Shown in pieces: positions 582 through 7,091 of a stretch of 64,000 nucleotides of DNA (positions are counted from its first letter, which is position 1; every line of letters begins with the position of its first letter). A program made the translations under genes and the position numbers. This DNA comes from a bacterium (GTDB taxonomy: Bacteria > Sysuimicrobiota > Sysuimicrobiia > Sysuimicrobiales > Segetimicrobiaceae), in contig DASPUZ010000163.1 in assembly GCA_035622635.1 (NCBI GenBank), forward strand, positions 4,813 through 68,812, in the 5' to 3' direction. A model generated the notes under the pieces. That model had not been told where the DNA came from, did not search any database, and saw only the letters and a list, made by a program, of their open reading frames with translations.

Positions 582-658
582 TGGTCGGGGCGCCCGGACT
601 TGAACCGGGGACCTTCTGCTCCCAAAGCAGACGCGCTACCAAGCTGCGCTACGCCCCG
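582..658 (-). tRNA. tRNA-Pro (anticodon TGG), CCA encoded
   Basis: Reverse complement reads CGGGGCG-TA-GCGC-AGCTTGGTA-GCGC-G-TCTGC-TTTGGGA-GCAGA-AGGTC-CCCGG-TTCAAGT-CCGGG-CGCCCCG-A-CCA. This is a perfect cloverleaf with a 7-bp acceptor stem, GG in the D-loop, a TTCAAGT T-loop, anticodon loop T-T-TGG-G-A, and G37 as is typical of tRNA-Pro. Confidence 0.93.
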
Positions 659-1442: not shown

Positions 1443-2205
1443 TTACGGCCGCCCTCCGGCCATGACGCTATGAAGGCTCGTAGGGAATGCGAATGATGAG
1501 TACTTGCAACCGCTCTTCCACGAGTTGCGGGAGGCATCGGCAGACGCGTCAACTGGGAAGCAGTCCACCCGTGCGAAAAGTGCGTCGCGCACGGCAACGA
1601 CATCAACGAGCGGGAAATCGGGCTGAGTGTGCGGGTCATACTGCGCGTGGGGCGCGGCCTCGCTCATCCAGAGCAACACTCGTACGCCCGGCTTCCGGTG
1701 GCGCCTCGAGTATGCGCCGAACGTGTGGACAATGGCGTTGCGCGCAGCCCACCACTCACTGCGGCTCAACTCTCCCACTACGCCCAGCCGGTGCAGGTCA
1801 GAGTTTCGGCCAGACCGCGCACGGTACTGTCACCGGCCGGGTGCAGTTCGCAAGCCAGCCGATTCAACGCGGCCTCCGCCTCCGCGTACGTCGGGCGCTC
1901 GTACGCCCACTGCAACTCCGCCGCCACGCCCCCTGCTGGCCGGTCGAAAGATAGGGCGTGACCTCCTCCGCGTAATGTCTGGTGTTGTCGCCGAGCACTC
2001 CATTCACCATGCCAGGGACGCTTCCCCCATTTCTCAATGAACTCCCGCGGAGACTCGTGCGCGGCGCCCCGCGTGTCCGATGCACGTCCGCGAGAACGCA
2101 AGAGGAGGATTCCGGAAGAATTCGCCGGTACTGGCCATCGAACACACGAAGGTGATTGACAGCACTTTCAACCCCACCCATAATGCCCCCAACAACCGAA
2201 TAGTC
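1443..2205 (-). pseudogene. Decayed Mutator/IS256-like transposase remnant (C-terminal half, several frameshifts)
   Basis: Three minus-strand frames read successively ..SVVGGIMGGVESAVNHLRVFDGQ.., ..DVHRTRGAPRTSLR.., and ..AELQWAYERPTYAEAEAALNRLACELHPAGDSTVRGLAETLTCTGWA(stop, -1 shift)VVGELSRSEWWAARNAIVHTFGAYSRRHRK. This order matches the motif order I recall for Mutator-type transposases (DG..L..Av..vF / H..RN / A.t..eAe.aL..l / P.aa.sL.eGleEtLT / tTNaIEs). No intact ORF spans it. Confidence 0.4.
2156..2184 (+). promoter_or_regulatory. Sigma70-type promoter candidate for the riboswitch-led operon
   Basis: TTGACA (2156-2161), exactly 17 nt of spacer, then CATAAT (2179-2184). The predicted transcription start at ~2191-2193 lies ~10 nt upstream of the conserved leader AGTCAGCA. 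Confidence 0.5.
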
Positions 2206-2286
2206 AGCACCGCCTTCGAACGGGCAAACCCGAAGCAATTCGGGGACGCAAAGCCACGGGACCCTCAGGGTCGGCCGGGTTGCCGA
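2202..2286 (+). promoter_or_regulatory. c-di-GMP-I (GEMM-I) riboswitch aptamer, copy 1
   Basis: Reads ..CGGGCAAACC-CGAA-GCAA-TTCG-GGGACGCAAAGCC-ACGGGACCC-TCA-GGGTCGGCCGGGTTGCCG. This aligns block for block with the Vibrio Vc2 aptamer as I recall it (GGGCAAACC, hairpin with GNRA tetraloop, GGGACGCAAAGCC, second hairpin, GGGUUnCCG). P1b stem CCCGAA/TTCGGG is capped by GCAA (2235-2238). Confidence 0.85.
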
Positions 2287-2309
2287 AAAGGAGCCGGGTG
2301 TACGTTGCC

Positions 2310-2350
2310 GGGCACGGAGGCCGTTCTGTGGCATCTGTGCCCTTGTTTTA
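2310..2350 (+). terminator. Terminator-like hairpin in the expression platform of riboswitch 1
   Basis: GGGCACGGA (2310-2318) pairs with TCTGTGCCC (2334-2342), giving 9 bp with one G-U. The loop is 15 nt and the stem is followed by TTGTTTTAT. Confidence 0.5.
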
Positions 2351-2456
2351 TCCTCTGCGGCGTCCGCGCGTTGGCTCGCACCGCTCGTCCGATAGCACTG
2401 CCTGCGCACGACACTACGGGAACGTGCTCCAAAAAAACGAATTGGGGAGGCAACCC

Positions 2457-2708
2457 ATGAGCAGTCGGGTCAATCATCAGGAGATCGTCAAGAAGGCGCT
2501 CGATGCCAAGGCGGTGGATTTTGCGGCGATCGGGAAGGTGATCGCCGAGGTGGGGCCGGCGCTCGCGCTCGCCGATGACCCCGGGGACTTCTTCTGCGGT
2601 ACCATGCGGCATTTCGTGCACGTCTATTCCGTCCGTGTCGTCAACGACGGCAGTGCGGTGGAAGAGTTGGGGGCTCTCGGGCGGGTTGCCGCGGAATTGC
2701 GGTCATAG
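2457..2708 (+). CDS. Hypothetical small protein (83 aa), first gene behind riboswitch 1
   Basis: ATG at 2457 is preceded by GGGGAGG 6 nt upstream. Translation is MSSRVNHQEIVKKALDAKAVDFAAIGKVIAEVGPALALADDPGDFFCGTMRHFVHVYSVRVVNDGSAVEELGALGRVAAELRS. The TAG stop (2706-2708) is immediately followed by the GTG of the next gene. Confidence 0.6.
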   Translation: MSSRVNHQEIVKKALDAKAVDFAAIGKVIAEVGPALALADDPGDFFCGTMRHFVHVYSVRVVNDGSAVEELGALGRVAAELRS

Positions 2709-4031
2709 GTGGCGGCCATTCACGAGGACGCCGAGGCGAGCGCCGGTGCTTCCGATGTCAACGGAGCCCGGTGGGACTCCGAGGACTTGGTGCGCCGTCT
2801 CTGCTGGGCGCTTGATATTGCCGAGCGGGCGGTGGACCGGCTCGCCGCAGCCGGATATGCCGATCCGGATGAAGTTGGAAACCATCTTCGTCCCGAGAAG
2901 CTGATCGCCGAGACCGCGTTTCTGTTGCTCAGTGCTTCGACGGCCGGGCGGTATCCCGAGGTGGAGCGGCGTGTTCGGCGCGTGGCGGAGCGGTTGACCC
3001 CTCACGCCCGAAGCGAGCGCATGATTCTCGGGATCTGCCTGGAGCCGGCCCTGGCCCTCGATTACGCGGAGGCGCACATCTGCCTGGCGAGGCTCGGGTA
3101 CCCCGACGTACGCTTCGACGCCGCACTCCGCCGTAGCCTCGGCGCACAGGCGCACGCCAGCCGCGAACGCCCTCCCCACCGTGTTCTCGAGCAGGATTGG
3201 CTCATGAGCGGCTGGACCGGCGCGCGAGCCTGCCGCGCGGCGCGCAGCTCGCAGGCGGTGTGGAACTCGGCACTGGGCCGCTCGATCGATCTGCTCGGCT
3301 GCACCCGTGAGGACGTGTACGCCTTTACTCACGCTCTAATGTACGTGGCCGACCAGGACCTCCATCCCCGGCGGTTGCCGCGCCCGAAGCCGGTGATCCT
3401 TGAAGAGGCCGAAGCCGCTCTCGCTTGGTGCCTCGACGAGCAGGATTACGATCTGGGCGGGGAGGTTCTGCTTGCATGGCCGCTCGTCCGGAGGCCGTGG
3501 AGCGCGGGGGCAGCGTTCGCGTTTCGAGTGCTGGCGCACGTCGAGGACCAGGCCGGCTTTCTCCCCGCACCGAGTACCCGCCTGCAGCGCCTCAACGCGC
3601 TGCGGGGTGATGCGCGCATCAACTACCTTTTGGCAACGGCGTATCACACGGCATACGTGATGGGGATGCTGTGCGCTGCGGTCCTGCGATTCGGAAGAAC
3701 ACCCCCATCCAAGATCCCTCGGACCCTGGCGGCGCGGGGCAGCGCACACAGAATCCTCCCGCTCCTCGACGCAGACGGAATGCACCCTCACTGGCGCGGC
3801 GAGTTTGACCACCTCCGTGGTCCGGAGCAGGACGCGATTGCGGGCTTCCTGCTGGCCATCGCACTGCGCCGGAAGGTGGGCCGGCGAGACATTGCCGGTC
3901 TCCACGACGTCCTGGCCATGGGACTCAGCCTGGGCCTGGCGGATTCCCCTGCGGCAAGCCAGGCCGCGGAACTGTTGGAACGCCTCGCCGGGGCGGCTCC
4001 GGAGTTACCGGTGGCCGCAGGGCGGAGCTAG
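2709..4031 (+). CDS. Hypothetical protein (440 aa, helix-rich by composition, no TM or signal peptide seen)
   Basis: Long ORF in a coding-like frame, with its GTG start abutting the stop of the 83-aa gene. I cannot assign any family motif. Confidence 0.7.
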   Translation: MAAIHEDAEASAGASDVNGARWDSEDLVRRLCWALDIAERAVDRLAAAGYADPDEVGNHLRPEKLIAETAFLLLSASTAGRYPEVERRVRRVAERLTPHARSERMILGICLEPALALDYAEAHICLARLGYPDVRFDAALRRSLGAQAHASRERPPHRVLEQDWLMSGWTGARACRAARSSQAVWNSALGRSIDLLGCTREDVYAFTHALMYVADQDLHPRRLPRPKPVILEEAEAALAWCLDEQDYDLGGEVLLAWPLVRRPWSAGAAFAFRVLAHVEDQAGFLPAPSTRLQRLNALRGDARINYLLATAYHTAYVMGMLCAAVLRFGRTPPSKIPRTLAARGSAHRILPLLDADGMHPHWRGEFDHLRGPEQDAIAGFLLAIALRRKVGRRDIAGLHDVLAMGLSLGLADSPAASQAAELLERLAGAAPELPVAAGRS

Positions 4032-4039
4032 TCCCGAAG

Positions 4040-4122
4040 AGTCAGCATCCTTCGAAGGGGCAAACCCGAAGCGATTCGGGGACGCAAAGCCATGGGACCC
4101 ACGAGGTCAGCCGGGCTGCCGG
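4040..4122 (+). promoter_or_regulatory. c-di-GMP-I (GEMM-I) riboswitch aptamer, copy 2 (intercistronic)
   Basis: Reads AGTCAGCATCCTTCGAAGGGGCAAACC-CGAA-GCGA-TTCG-GGGACGCAAAGCC-ATGGGACCC-ACGA-GGTCAGCCGGGCTGCCGG. It has the same blocks as copy 1. The tetraloop is GCGA (still GNRA). In the second hairpin, C2257:G2273 of copy 1 is replaced by T4093:A4109. It starts 9 nt after the stop of the 440-aa gene. Confidence 0.85.
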
Positions 4123-4147
4123 AGGGCACGAGCACAAAGGGAACACG

Positions 4148-4190
4148 GACGCGAGCAACTGTGACGGTGCGCTCGCGTCTTGCTTTCTTG
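4148..4190 (+). terminator. Intrinsic terminator-like hairpin in the expression platform of riboswitch 2
   Basis: GACGCGAGC (4148-4156) pairs perfectly with GCTCGCGTC (4171-4179) around a 14-nt loop. The stem is followed by TTGCTTTCTTG. Confidence 0.6.
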
Positions 4191-4222
4191 CTGACCCAAT
4201 TCGAATAAAGGGGGAAACTCAC

Positions 4223-6361
4223 GTGACGGACAACAGCGCCCAGAACCCCGTTTCACGGATCGGCAACCCGCCCGCGAAGGTTGACCTCACGAAATTACCG
4301 CCCGAGCGGGCCCGAGCGTCTTTTCGTGCGCTCATTCTCGCCAATCCCAACTACTTCGGAAACGTGACCGGCAGCCAATTCAAACCCGTCTTGAACATCG
4401 TTTCCGACACGACATACGAGGAGCTGCACTGTGTGGGATTCCAGCCCGCGCTGAACCGGCTGGAGGCCGTGGTCCACGTCAACCAGTCGACGGGGTATGG
4501 CGGCGACGTGTGCTCGAGCGGGTCGCGGGAGTACGTTCGCTTCTACCTCTCCTACGACAACGGCGCCACCTGGCAAGACCAGGGGTCGGTGAGCTTCGCG
4601 GTCTACGACGTGCCAGGGAACAAGCCGCTCGAATATGCTGCCACACTGGAACTCCAGCCCCCGCCGGCGGAGAAGCTGTGCTTCATTCAGAACCTCCCGA
4701 AAGTCAGGGCGATCCTCTCCTGGAACAACGATCCGCCTCCAAACACTCCGGCCTTTACGCCGGTGTGGGGCAACGTAGTGGATGCGCACATCCAGATCGA
4801 AGGGCTCGACCTGATCGTACTGGCCGACGTGCTGCAGGAGGCCAACGTCAGCCTGCCGATCGAGCTCGCCTCGTCGATCGACCTGTCGCAGAGCGTTCAC
4901 ACCGCCAAGGCAAAGGCGCTGAGCGCGGGTGAGTTGGTCGCTCTCTACCAGGGGACCAAGGTGCCATCGCACCGCTTCCTGTTCGCCGAGTTCCAGCAAC
5001 TCCTGGCCCACCCGCCGTTGACCCAGACCTTGATGACGGCAACGCCGTCATTGCCGCTGGCCGGGCTCGGCGTCAATGTCGGGGACGCGGTGGCCGGGCT
5101 GCTTGGCACGAGCGGCGACACCACGTACGAGGAGCTGGACTGCGTCGGGCTCGACTTCAATCGGGACGCGGTGGTGGGCGTGCTGAAGGTCAAGCAGCCC
5201 GGGGGCTATCTTGGCGGCCCGTGCACGGCCGGGAGCCAGGAGTATGTGGCGTTCTGGGTCGACTGGGGGGATGGCAAGGGGTGGACCTATGCGGGGACCG
5301 CGTCGGTCTCCGTTCACGACTTCAGCAGTATTCCGCTGGACGGCCTTGAGTACTCTGTGTATCTCCCCGTTGATATCGTCAGCCACATGCAACCGTGCGG
5401 CAGCGGGGCCAAGACGGCGCGTGTGCGCGCCATCCTTTCCTGGGAGACACCGCCGCCGCCGAGTAATCCAGACTACGTGCCGGTGTGGGGGAACCGGGAC
5501 GACACGTTGGTTCTCGTCCGGCCCGGGACCGCGCCCACCGCGTGCATGGCCAATATCAGCATCATCGGCGGGATCGGCATCGGCCAGATCGACACCGGCA
5601 GCACGGGATACACGGTGCCGAACGCGCTCTTTGCGCTCCAGGGCACCCCTGCCGATCCCTGGGTTCCCGCCCGGCAGTGCCCGTTTGGAGCCCGGATTGT
5701 CATTCAGGGATATCCGTGCGTCGGATACAAGTATCGCGTCAAAGTCAGGGACGTCACGGCCGGCGGGCTCCCGATCATATTGACCGATCAGATTTGGACG
5801 GTGGACAACAACGGCAACGGGACGTGGCGGAGTCCAGACGGGAGTGGGTTCTTCACGTACGTGGGTACGAGCGACAACATCGACAATGTCCTGGCCTACT
5901 GGGATTCCTCCGGCGACGATCTGTGGGAAGTCATGCTGGAGCTCGCGGACGCCAGCGACAACGTGCTCAACTGGACGCCCCAGTACCGAGTCCAGTTGGA
6001 CAACACCGCGCCCATCGCTGCAATCCACATCGATAGCGGCGGTGATTGCAAGCAGTTTACGGCGGGCGCCACGATCAACGGCCACTTCGTGGCGCAGGAC
6101 GCGAACTTCGGCGTGTTCGGGCTGAGCACGCTCCCGGCCTCCGTGAATCCCAATGAACCCACCACCGCCACGCCGGCGACATCGGAAACGGCGCCCTCGC
6201 CGGGTAACCCTTGGCAACTCAACACCGACACTCCCGACGAGATGCCGCCGTGCGGCTATGTCGTACACCTGGATGTGTGGGACCGGTCCATCCTGAACAG
6301 CGCTCCCGGTAACCACAACTACAATTCAGCCGACGTGGGCTTCTGCTTGCTGATCTCCTAG
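4223..6361 (+). CDS. Hypothetical protein (712 aa) with internal duplication of a ~130-aa domain
   Basis: GTG start is preceded by AAAGGGGGAA. Residues ~62-193 and ~299-433 share DTTYEEL.CVG, GY.GG.C..GS.EYV.F, LEY, (A)RVRAILSW..PPP..P...PVWGN. No signal peptide or TM segment; the C-terminal ~270 aa are Gly/Asn/Asp/Thr-rich (beta-like). Confidence 0.8.
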   Translation: MTDNSAQNPVSRIGNPPAKVDLTKLPPERARASFRALILANPNYFGNVTGSQFKPVLNIVSDTTYEELHCVGFQPALNRLEAVVHVNQSTGYGGDVCSSGSREYVRFYLSYDNGATWQDQGSVSFAVYDVPGNKPLEYAATLELQPPPAEKLCFIQNLPKVRAILSWNNDPPPNTPAFTPVWGNVVDAHIQIEGLDLIVLADVLQEANVSLPIELASSIDLSQSVHTAKAKALSAGELVALYQGTKVPSHRFLFAEFQQLLAHPPLTQTLMTATPSLPLAGLGVNVGDAVAGLLGTSGDTTYEELDCVGLDFNRDAVVGVLKVKQPGGYLGGPCTAGSQEYVAFWVDWGDGKGWTYAGTASVSVHDFSSIPLDGLEYSVYLPVDIVSHMQPCGSGAKTARVRAILSWETPPPPSNPDYVPVWGNRDDTLVLVRPGTAPTACMANISIIGGIGIGQIDTGSTGYTVPNALFALQGTPADPWVPARQCPFGARIVIQGYPCVGYKYRVKVRDVTAGGLPIILTDQIWTVDNNGNGTWRSPDGSGFFTYVGTSDNIDNVLAYWDSSGDDLWEVMLELADASDNVLNWTPQYRVQLDNTAPIAAIHIDSGGDCKQFTAGATINGHFVAQDANFGVFGLSTLPASVNPNEPTTATPATSETAPSPGNPWQLNTDTPDEMPPCGYVVHLDVWDRSILNSAPGNHNYNSADVGFCLLIS

Positions 6362-6382
6362 TCATAGGCGGGTGCGTTTCCC

Positions 6383-6415
6383 GAGGAGGGCTCTCCCGTT
6401 GGGCGAGCCCTCCTC
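6383..6415 (+). terminator. Strong hairpin just after the 712-aa gene (terminator candidate, no U-tract)
   Basis: GAGGAGGGCTC (6383-6393) pairs perfectly with GAGCCCTCCTC (6405-6415), giving an 11-bp stem with an 11-nt loop. It begins 22 nt after the stop codon. Confidence 0.45.
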
Positions 6416-6536
6416 CACAAAGGAGCGCTCTTTCGCGGAGCGACAGCCCAACTGGAACCCATTGCAGGGCAACAATTTCCGCACGACGGCCTCTTGAAGG
6501 CCGCCAGAAAGAGGCCCCCCTCGCTCCCGCGGATCA

Positions 6537-6730
6537 GTGACAGGGTCGTGGCGCTCCTCACGCACCTGCAGGTCAGCGGTGCGAGATCGCGCACCCTGGA
6601 ACACCGTCGCATGGGCTCGGCGCGCTCACCAGCGTCCTCGACAACGCCGATCCCGACGCGCTGACACGTCCGAATCTCGTTGCATTCTTGGAGACGTTTC
6701 AGCTCAGCCGGCCTGCGGCCGCTGGAGGGT
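6537..6730 (+). pseudogene. Possible integrase N-terminal remnant (frameshifted)
   Basis: Two adjoining frames give ..ALLTHLQVSGARSRTLEHRRMG / LGALTSVLDNADPDALTRPNLVAFLETFQLSRPAAAG. This parallels the spacing of FLLQKQVGGCSARTMGTYRWWLDRIA....DLDTLGITTYLAKL in the integrase at 1-395. It is short, and no catalytic domain follows. Confidence 0.3.
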
Positions 6731-7091
6731 TCGCGTTCAGCTTCCACTCATCAAAGGACCGGCCCGGAAGACCGCGGTTGGCTGTCGTCAGGTCGAGCGG
6801 TCACGAACTCTTTTGCCCGCCACACCCCCCTTTCGCTCCCGCCCATCGCGCACGACAGTGTGGGAGTTGTTAGTGTCTGTACACCGCGGATTTTGGTCCT
6901 ACCACAAGATATAAAGCACATGTCGAAAGGAGGTGCTATGCGGTGCCCGCGCGTCTGTTGACCCGCAGGAACTGGCTCGCCGTGTCCGGGTGGCACTTGG
7001 AAGACGAGCCGGCAGACAGCGGTGCGGCGGGCGATCGCCTCTCTGCTGACCGGCCGGGACGGCGACGGGCTACAGACGATCGAGTGGAAGA

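Follow-up and report, generated by a model that had tools for sequence, protein, structure and literature searches.

Conserved-precursor systems for peptides that are made by the ribosome and modified after translation (RiPPs), such as PqqA/PqqE-PqqD and the mycofactocin system MftA/MftB/MftC, place a small, conserved, single-copy product always beside its processing enzyme, and the two are co-inherited. For the Pfam family DUF6895 (PF21836) the first functional assignment came only recently and from a lasso-peptide pathway, one member being, by the title of the report (Shi et al., ACS Catal. 2026, 16:1757; cited in PMC13352647 and PMC13453073), an epimerase of lasso peptides. Riboswitches of the GEMM-I class, typified by the aptamers Vibrio cholerae Vc2 and Bacillus Bc1 (Rfam clan CL00126), sense cyclic di-GMP (c-di-GMP) and usually control genes for secreted, pilus, motility or signalling proteins. 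Here we analysed a pair of abutting genes at positions 2457-4031 of a 64,000-nucleotide (nt) stretch of DNA, hereafter the window (positions 4,813 to 68,812 of contig DASPUZ010000163.1, assembly GCA_035622635.1), from a bacterium of the Segetimicrobiaceae (Sysuimicrobiota). The pair encodes a protein of 83 amino acids (aa) and a 440-aa DUF6895 protein; it lies behind a GEMM-I aptamer and is followed by a second aptamer and a gene for a 712-aa protein.

The pair proved to be a self-contained, co-evolving two-gene cassette that is scattered over many phyla, and its recruitment to a c-di-GMP riboswitch proved to be recent, local and lineage-specific. The joint reading that we favour, at a probability of about 0.45, is that the locus is a c-di-GMP-controlled unit in which the 83-aa protein would serve the DUF6895 enzyme as its dedicated substrate or as an obligate partner. 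Both the Pfam family and the riboswitch class are already known. An obligate cassette of a small protein and a DUF6895 protein without lasso machinery, and c-di-GMP control of this cassette with a duplicate aptamer inside the operon, appear to be undescribed in the literature searched.

A two-gene cassette scattered over many phyla

The 83-aa gene (2457-2708, plus strand) begins with ATG and ends with the TAG codon at 2706-2708, which is followed without a gap by the GTG start codon (2709) of the 440-aa gene (2709-4031, plus strand), and the two open reading frames (ORFs) share one frame. The first-pass annotation of the sequence had described such an abutting pair, and its coordinates and codons were exact. 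The database searches yielded 549 significant homologs of the large protein among 8,000 scored candidates and 102 homologs of the small one, and both ORFs are therefore real genes and not chance ORFs. GTG 2709 is the sole in-frame start of the 440-aa ORF ahead of its conserved core, the next candidates (L27/V28) being located within an invariant helix. The 83-aa gene has a strong Shine-Dalgarno sequence ahead of it, GGGGAGG (2444-2450), and the 440-aa gene has nothing comparable, a pattern that makes coupling by termination-reinitiation plausible. The two proteins had been expected to be made together; the abutment agrees with this, and we regard the genes as probably coupled in translation. 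Read-through of the single TAG (2706-2711) would yield a 524-aa fusion of the two proteins. Elsewhere the small and DUF6895 genes occur in various frames, 10-60 nt apart, and the same-frame TAG was found again in a metagenome locus (L137) of the same organism, so that the same-frame, single-TAG arrangement is peculiar to the organism of the window.

The first-pass annotation had called both proteins orphans. For the 440-aa protein this did not stand, because it matches DUF6895 with 159 bits (cut-off 23.8; E 2.2e-46), residues 34-323 covering model positions 4-289 of 289. The 83-aa protein retains that description, as it has no family name and no match in Pfam, NCBIfam, PADLOC or PHROGs; besides DUF6895, no Pfam family was matched at E <= 1 by it, the 440-aa protein or the downstream 712-aa protein. 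The best 120 homologs of the 440-aa protein share approximately 55-70% identity with it and come from several phyla, the closest named relative (67% identity) belonging to a Terriglobia metagenome-assembled genome (MAG). When 1.84 billion representatives were searched with a profile, 1,115 clusters, counted at 50% identity, were obtained at E <= 1e-3 and, with the cut-off set to E <= 1e-30, 410. No natural fusion of the small and DUF6895 proteins was found among the homologs, the longer ones being start or stop miscalls save for one sulfotransferase fusion. This homolog (P0066, from a JGI metagenome) carries an N-terminal sulfotransferase domain (PF17784) ahead of a full DUF6895 domain.

Conservation of the pair was assessed at 80 genome loci with a gene for a DUF6895 relative. 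In 74 of these by tblastn, and in 76 by a hidden Markov model (HMM), the gene next upstream of the DUF6895 gene, in the same orientation, is a homolog of the small gene, and two of the four HMM misses are at contig ends that cut the locus; the association of the two genes, noted before in the window only as adjacency, was found in this co-occurrence search to be general. The gap between the two genes is mostly 10-60 nt, and otherwise they overlap. The hosts belong to more than 10 phyla and include Acidobacteriota, Verrucomicrobiota, the genera Rhodanobacter, Dyella and Fulvimonas, Mucilaginibacter, Actinomycetota, Gemmatimonadota, Eremiobacterota, NC10, Chloroflexota and Planctomycetota, together with a Deinococcaceae MAG and a Saccharibacteria MAG. 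The last of these cassettes (L029) is on a 4-kb contig, and its binning as Saccharibacteria may be an artefact. Two cassettes are present in the MAG DATHMH01, on the long contigs L011 and L027, and Rhodanobacter has two divergent subfamilies (L009/L013 and L077/L080, with 59% and 40% identity to the window, respectively). The small gene is single-copy everywhere, tandem copies being absent from the 80 loci.

All-against-all clustering of the ORFs of the 80 loci revealed no recurrent neighbour other than the pair itself, save for synteny in Acidobacteriaceae, where about ten related genomes carry the cassette downstream of rpoC. No RiPP-type genes were found beside the cassette in these syntenic loci, and Pfam matches among the neighbours there and in the window were to GT2, NAD-epimerase, Mo-oxidoreductase, rpoC and bestrophin-like proteins. 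Loci of the Acidobacteriaceae type also have a promoter-like motif, TGAAACGAAA followed after 13-14 nt by CACTAT, 85-115 nt upstream of the small gene (L002, L004, L007, L015-L020, L022, L025, L045 and L049). The two proteins have diverged together: their pairwise identities are correlated (Mantel r 0.83, a value reached by 0 of 999 permutations), with mean pairwise identities of 0.41 for the small protein and 0.46 for the enzyme. The central motif of the small protein falls into classes (FCGTMR in 48 loci, GVxFGxxNxLAC in 16 and others in 7) that broadly track the divergence of the enzyme, although with overlapping identity ranges.

The patchy distribution suggests that the cassette may have been spread by horizontal transfer. 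A two-gene cassette that is patchy across phyla, occurs twice in DATHMH01 and in two divergent forms within Rhodanobacter, and lies near an int-alpA RNA and an insertion-sequence remnant in the case of one homolog, might also be read as a toxin-antitoxin pair, an anti-phage defence module or mobile-element cargo without enzymatic function. We consider this highly improbable: none of the three proteins matched PADLOC or PHROGs at E <= 1, the Acidobacteriaceae cassettes occupy a stable site downstream of rpoC with their own promoter-like motif, about 60% identity is kept across phyla, and the many invariant residues of catalytic type in the 440-aa protein are unlike typical toxin-antitoxin systems.

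The DUF6895 protein and its small partner

The 440-aa protein is rich in Ala (17.7%), Leu (13.4%) and Arg (11.1%), a composition from which it had been predicted to be all-helical, and its AlphaFold2 model is indeed all-helical with approximately 22 helices (pLDDT 88.5, pTM 0.87). The prediction that neither protein has a signal peptide, a transmembrane helix or a nucleotide-binding loop likewise held, with a maximum Kyte-Doolittle-19 value of 1.46 and no Walker A motif in the pair. An alignment of 30 members contains 71 invariant columns rich in His, Asp, Glu, Tyr, Arg and Cys, among them the motifs DxYAFTHA, YHTxYVMG, ERxPxR, CLDxQDYDLxxE, VEDxxGFLP and HW. The invariant residues include H123, E153/R154, D202/Y204/H208, D246-Y247-D248/E252, E279/D280, Y312/H313 and H361/W362. 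To judge from the alignment, this invariant set looks like an active site, and the 440-aa protein is a probable enzyme. Sequence searches of the PDB with the single sequence and with the profile gave no significant match, and neither did Foldseek with the model (best match LanCL1, E 0.37). Several of the top non-significant Foldseek matches (LanCL1 3e6u, UGL 3wiw/3vxd, 3k7x and C3d/C4Adg) are six-hairpin (alpha/alpha)6 toroids, a group comprising LanC-like proteins, GH88 unsaturated glucuronyl hydrolases (UGL) and AGE-type epimerases, which resemble the model in being all-alpha. However, with E values of at least 0.37, TM-scores of 0.18-0.32 and no Pfam cross-match at E <= 1, these matches give only a hint of such a fold.

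The small protein combines a part that all subfamilies share with a part that is specific to each. Residues 1-45 (HQEIVKKxLDxKAVDFxAIGKxVAExGP) are conserved in all subfamilies, and the segment ADEPWxxFCGTMRxF that comes next is near-invariant within the subfamily of the window; after it come a stretch of variable sequence and, at the C-terminus, an amphipathic helix. The central segment thus differs between subfamilies and is invariant within each, and it is not hypervariable. When modelled alone from 82 homologs, the 83-aa protein gave no confident globular fold (pLDDT 63, pTM 0.33). Helices were predicted at residues 7-16, 22-37 and 71-82, the first two forming an N-terminal hairpin, and the lowest confidence (pLDDT < 60) fell on the invariant centre, residues 38-70. 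MAFFT repeatedly paired residues 7-24 of the 83-aa protein (HQEIVKKALDAKAVDFAA) with residues 24-41 of the 440-aa protein or helix 1 of DUF6895 homologs (TEDLVRRLSHALDIAKQA); this weak likeness between amphipathic helices is probably a coincidence.

That the most conserved segment is predicted to be disordered, in a protein constantly accompanied by one enzyme, is most simply explained if the 83-aa protein is either a substrate of the DUF6895 enzyme or a partner that acquires its fold on the enzyme. The main competing view gives the 83-aa protein a non-substrate role as subunit, chaperone or regulator of the enzyme, whose real substrate would be something else, such as another peptide, an envelope component or a small molecule. 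Such a role would fit a protein that is conserved over its full length at about the rate of the enzyme, that is single-copy and lacks a hypervariable core, and whose tight stop/start coupling to the enzyme gene suits two subunits made in the same quantity; a poor model of the isolated chain would likewise be expected of a protein that needs its partner to fold. On the other hand, no other conserved linked gene is present that could supply a substrate pathway, and the greatest invariance in the small protein falls on a loop predicted to be disordered and not on the core of a fold, which suits a bound peptide although a subunit is also compatible with it. On balance we regard a non-substrate role as possible but not probable; the toxin-antitoxin or defence role discussed above and an altered ligand of the riboswitch, discussed below, are less likely.

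Two GEMM-I aptamers in one predicted operon

The cassette of the window is preceded by a sigma-70-type promoter-like site, TTGACA-17 nt-CATAAT (2156-2184, plus strand; 11 of 12 matches), which is the sole sigma-70-like match in 1800-6800 (mean in shuffled sequence 0.5) and from which transcription is predicted to start near 2191, about 20 nt ahead of the first aptamer. This aptamer (2214-2288, plus strand) was matched by Rfam with 61.6 bits (E 4e-12; best model RF03167), and the gating of the pair by a riboswitch, proposed before, stands as far as a GEMM-I clan aptamer above the gathering score is concerned. It is followed by a putative expression platform (2310-2351, plus strand) that resembles an intrinsic terminator, in which a G+C-rich hairpin, GGGCACGGAGGCC...GGCAUCUGUGCCC (2310-2342), is followed by UUGUUUUAU. 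The hairpin is present in the minimum-free-energy fold, and a simple terminator scan overlooked this platform because its loop is long. The first-pass annotation had the pair and this aptamer right, and it missed a second aptamer and the gene behind it. Aptamer 2 (4050-4124, plus strand; 61.4 bits) begins 19 nt past the DUF6895 stop codon and has its own terminator-like platform (4148-4189, plus strand), consisting of the hairpin GACGCGAGC...GCUCGCGUC (4148-4179) and the U-tract UUGCUUUCUU. We regard a two-aptamer operon with terminator-type platforms as real in this genome.

The two aptamers are identical at 65 of 75 nt (87%). All 18 internal pairs are standard in both, and the three differences at paired positions keep or improve pairing; in the helices G-U is exchanged for G-C and C-G for U-G, and the hairpin loop remains a GNRA tetraloop (GCAA and GCGA). 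This combination of identity and pairing-preserving differences points to a local duplication, after which both copies would have been kept under structural constraint. Between the stop codon of the 440-aa gene and aptamer 2 neither a promoter-like site nor a terminator was found, and the simplest reading is therefore a single transcription unit with two successive checkpoints, running from the promoter through the pair and aptamer 2 to the 712-aa gene. In stepwise folding a transient alternative pairs the 5' arm of terminator 1 with aptamer sequence, so that ligand binding would favour termination; the predicted folds thus weakly suggest an OFF switch.

The 712-aa gene (4223-6361, plus strand) lies behind aptamer 2 with a Shine-Dalgarno sequence, GGGGG, at 4210-4214. 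Its product belongs to a large uncharacterised family, with 2,467 significant matches among the candidates scored, and contains an internal duplication (roughly residues 60-200 and 300-430); it has no match in Pfam, NCBIfam, PADLOC, PHROGs or the PDB. At the four homolog loci examined the gene stands alone, and Rfam found no GEMM-I there. In an NC10 MAG (L040, 488-4488) a gene for a homolog of the 712-aa protein (40% identity) lies directly upstream of the small gene and the DUF6895 gene, so that all three genes of the window recur there in the opposite order and without a riboswitch. This adjacency is a weak hint that the 712-aa family may be functionally connected with the cassette.

Which ligand the aptamers sense had to be considered with some care, since RF03167, their best model, describes the c-di-GMP-I-GGC variant. 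This model, with a gathering score of 59 bits, outscored the other clan family for both aptamers, which would favour true GGC variants, or aptamers otherwise altered in specificity that sense another ligand. Other CL00126 families, however, gave two lower-scoring, overlapping matches that also exceeded their gathering scores and were removed by clan competition alone. The RF03167 consensus, GACGC-G-AAGCC, has its diagnostic G at model position 37, where both window aptamers carry the canonical A (GACGC-A-AAGCC), and membership in the variant was rejected. Both aptamers also carry GGGCAAACC, GACGCAAAGCC and UUGCCGA, which are the segments of the equivalents of G20, A47 and C92; their letter-by-letter placing follows what we take to be the Vc2 sequence. 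Compared with the canonical class, two of these segments are identical and the third is one base off. In the Vc2 aptamer G20, A47 and C92 contact the ligand (PMC5888326). With the canonical A and canonical contact segments in both aptamers we treated them as c-di-GMP sensors, and c-di-GMP is their likely ligand on the basis of sequence, an altered specificity being improbable. The RF03167 label stems from the overall score of the aptamers and not from their binding site.

As in canonical GEMM-I riboswitches, the window aptamers score above gathering, have a GNRA-capped hairpin and the three contact segments, and are each followed by a terminator-type platform. They differ from those in having the GGC variant as best Rfam model in spite of the canonical diagnostic base, in occurring as two near-identical copies in one operon, the second of them intergenic, and in their targets, which look cytoplasmic instead of being secreted, pilus, motility or signalling proteins. 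That such a pair is unexpected behind a GEMM-I element had already been remarked in the first-pass annotation. A pattern scan of metagenomes for this type of aptamer bears this out: in the 120 loci obtained, the recurring ORFs downstream of the aptamer have signal-peptide-like N-termini (one cluster comprises 29 such ORFs, the longest member exceeding 1,600 aa), in keeping with the usual GEMM-I regulon; the unusual nature of the targets in the window is thereby confirmed.

The pair was found in only one of these 120 loci, L137, which belongs to the organism of the window itself (100% and 98.8% identity). By Rfam, the region upstream of the cassette had no GEMM-I at 11 diverse loci, at those of the three closest relatives from other contigs (68-69% identity) or at the NC10 cassette locus, and a scan for the GEMM-I core motif near the pair was negative in all 80 loci. 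A conserved riboswitch linkage of the cassette was rejected accordingly, as no GEMM-I was present in any cassette locus or 712-aa homolog locus tested elsewhere. The link between the two genes seen in the window extends to 76 of the 80 loci, whereas the link to a riboswitch is confined to the organism of the window, and conservation of the upstream aptamer, which had been left to a wider search, was not observed at other cassette loci by Rfam on subsets or by the motif scan of all 80.

Two further features of the window were noted. A third GEMM-like motif at about 15017 on the minus strand (GACGCAAAGCC preceded by GGCCAACCCG) was picked up by the motif scan only; Rfam gave no match even at E <= 1, and it was treated as a chance occurrence. 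A tRNA-Pro(TGG) gene (582-658, minus strand) is followed by about 1.5 kb (700-2150) without a recognisable gene before the operon promoter, and the ORFs in this interval have no Pfam match.

Proposed mechanism and its implications

In the mechanism that we propose, the promoter at 2156-2184 would be followed by aptamer 1 and its terminator, the 83-aa and 440-aa genes, aptamer 2 and its terminator, and the 712-aa gene. Binding of c-di-GMP to each aptamer would decide whether the terminator downstream of it forms, and the cassette and the 712-aa gene would be expressed according to the cellular c-di-GMP level. The 83-aa protein would act as dedicated substrate or obligate binding partner of the DUF6895 enzyme, with its N-terminal helical hairpin serving as the recognition element and its EPW..FCGTMR.F segment located in the active site, where it might be modified post-translationally. 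The obvious candidate for the chemistry would be epimerisation, since a peptide epimerase has been reported, by title, from DUF6895.

The comparison with this epimerase shows likenesses and differences. The window protein matches PF21836 over its full length (E 2e-46), and in both cases, as far as the title of the epimerase report indicates, a peptide-modifying enzyme would be encoded beside a small ribosomal product. In contrast to the epimerase pathway, neither the window nor the 80 homologous loci have a linked gene for a lasso cyclase, a peptidase or a RiPP recognition element (RRE), and the partner is a conserved protein of about 80 aa instead of a lasso precursor of about 40-50 aa. Judged as a RiPP precursor, the small gene is short, adjacent to the enzyme gene and co-oriented with it; where a precursor would have a conserved leader and a variable core, residues 1-45 are conserved and the central segment varies between subfamilies without being hypervariable. 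The set of precursor, cyclase and leader peptidase or RRE that marks a lasso cluster was found neither at the window nor at the 80 loci. The PqqA and MftA systems resemble the cassette in that their small conserved product is likewise co-inherited with the processing enzyme, but the window cassette has no radical-SAM enzyme, PqqD-like RRE or peptidase, and its partner of about 80 aa has predicted helices at both ends.

Several observations weigh against the proposed mechanism. Unlike classical RiPP cores, the small protein is not hypervariable, and each locus has a single copy of its gene. The cassette has no accompanying RRE/PqqD domain, protease or exporter (Pfam; 80-locus neighbourhoods), there are no lasso genes near it in the window or the 80 loci, and the Foldseek and PDB sequence searches gave no significant match. 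Co-transcription across 4031-4223 and the direction of the switch are, furthermore, deduced from predicted folds and from the lack of any promoter-like match. A more specific proposal, which we put forward as doubtful, is a minimal and previously undescribed two-gene modification system, common among soil bacteria from more than 10 phyla, in which the DUF6895 enzyme would alter the invariant loop of its own ~80-aa partner stereochemically or covalently without RiPP machinery, and which would have been wired to c-di-GMP, together with the 712-aa protein, in this lineage.

For riboswitch annotation, the locus illustrates that the Rfam "GGC variant" label can fall on aptamers with a canonical binding site. 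For the family, the cassette offers a solid lead, open to testing, on a large group of uncharacterised proteins, its function being proposed from sequence. A large branch of DUF6895, found in Acidobacteriota, Verrucomicrobiota, Pseudomonadota, Bacteroidota, Actinomycetota and others, occurs in a context different from that of the recently assigned lasso-pathway member, namely in an obligate pair with a protein of about 80 aa and with nothing else. The hypothesis of an enzyme with a dedicated substrate or partner can be tested for these more than 1,000 uncharacterised proteins. The c-di-GMP riboswitches of the window provide a rare regulatory handle on the cassette and on a second uncharacterised family, that of the 712-aa protein with more than 2,400 homologs, and riboswitch control offers a simple reporter for the study of both. 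Gating by c-di-GMP suggests, moreover, that the cassette and the 712-aa protein may matter under conditions that distinguish a biofilm from a motile lifestyle.

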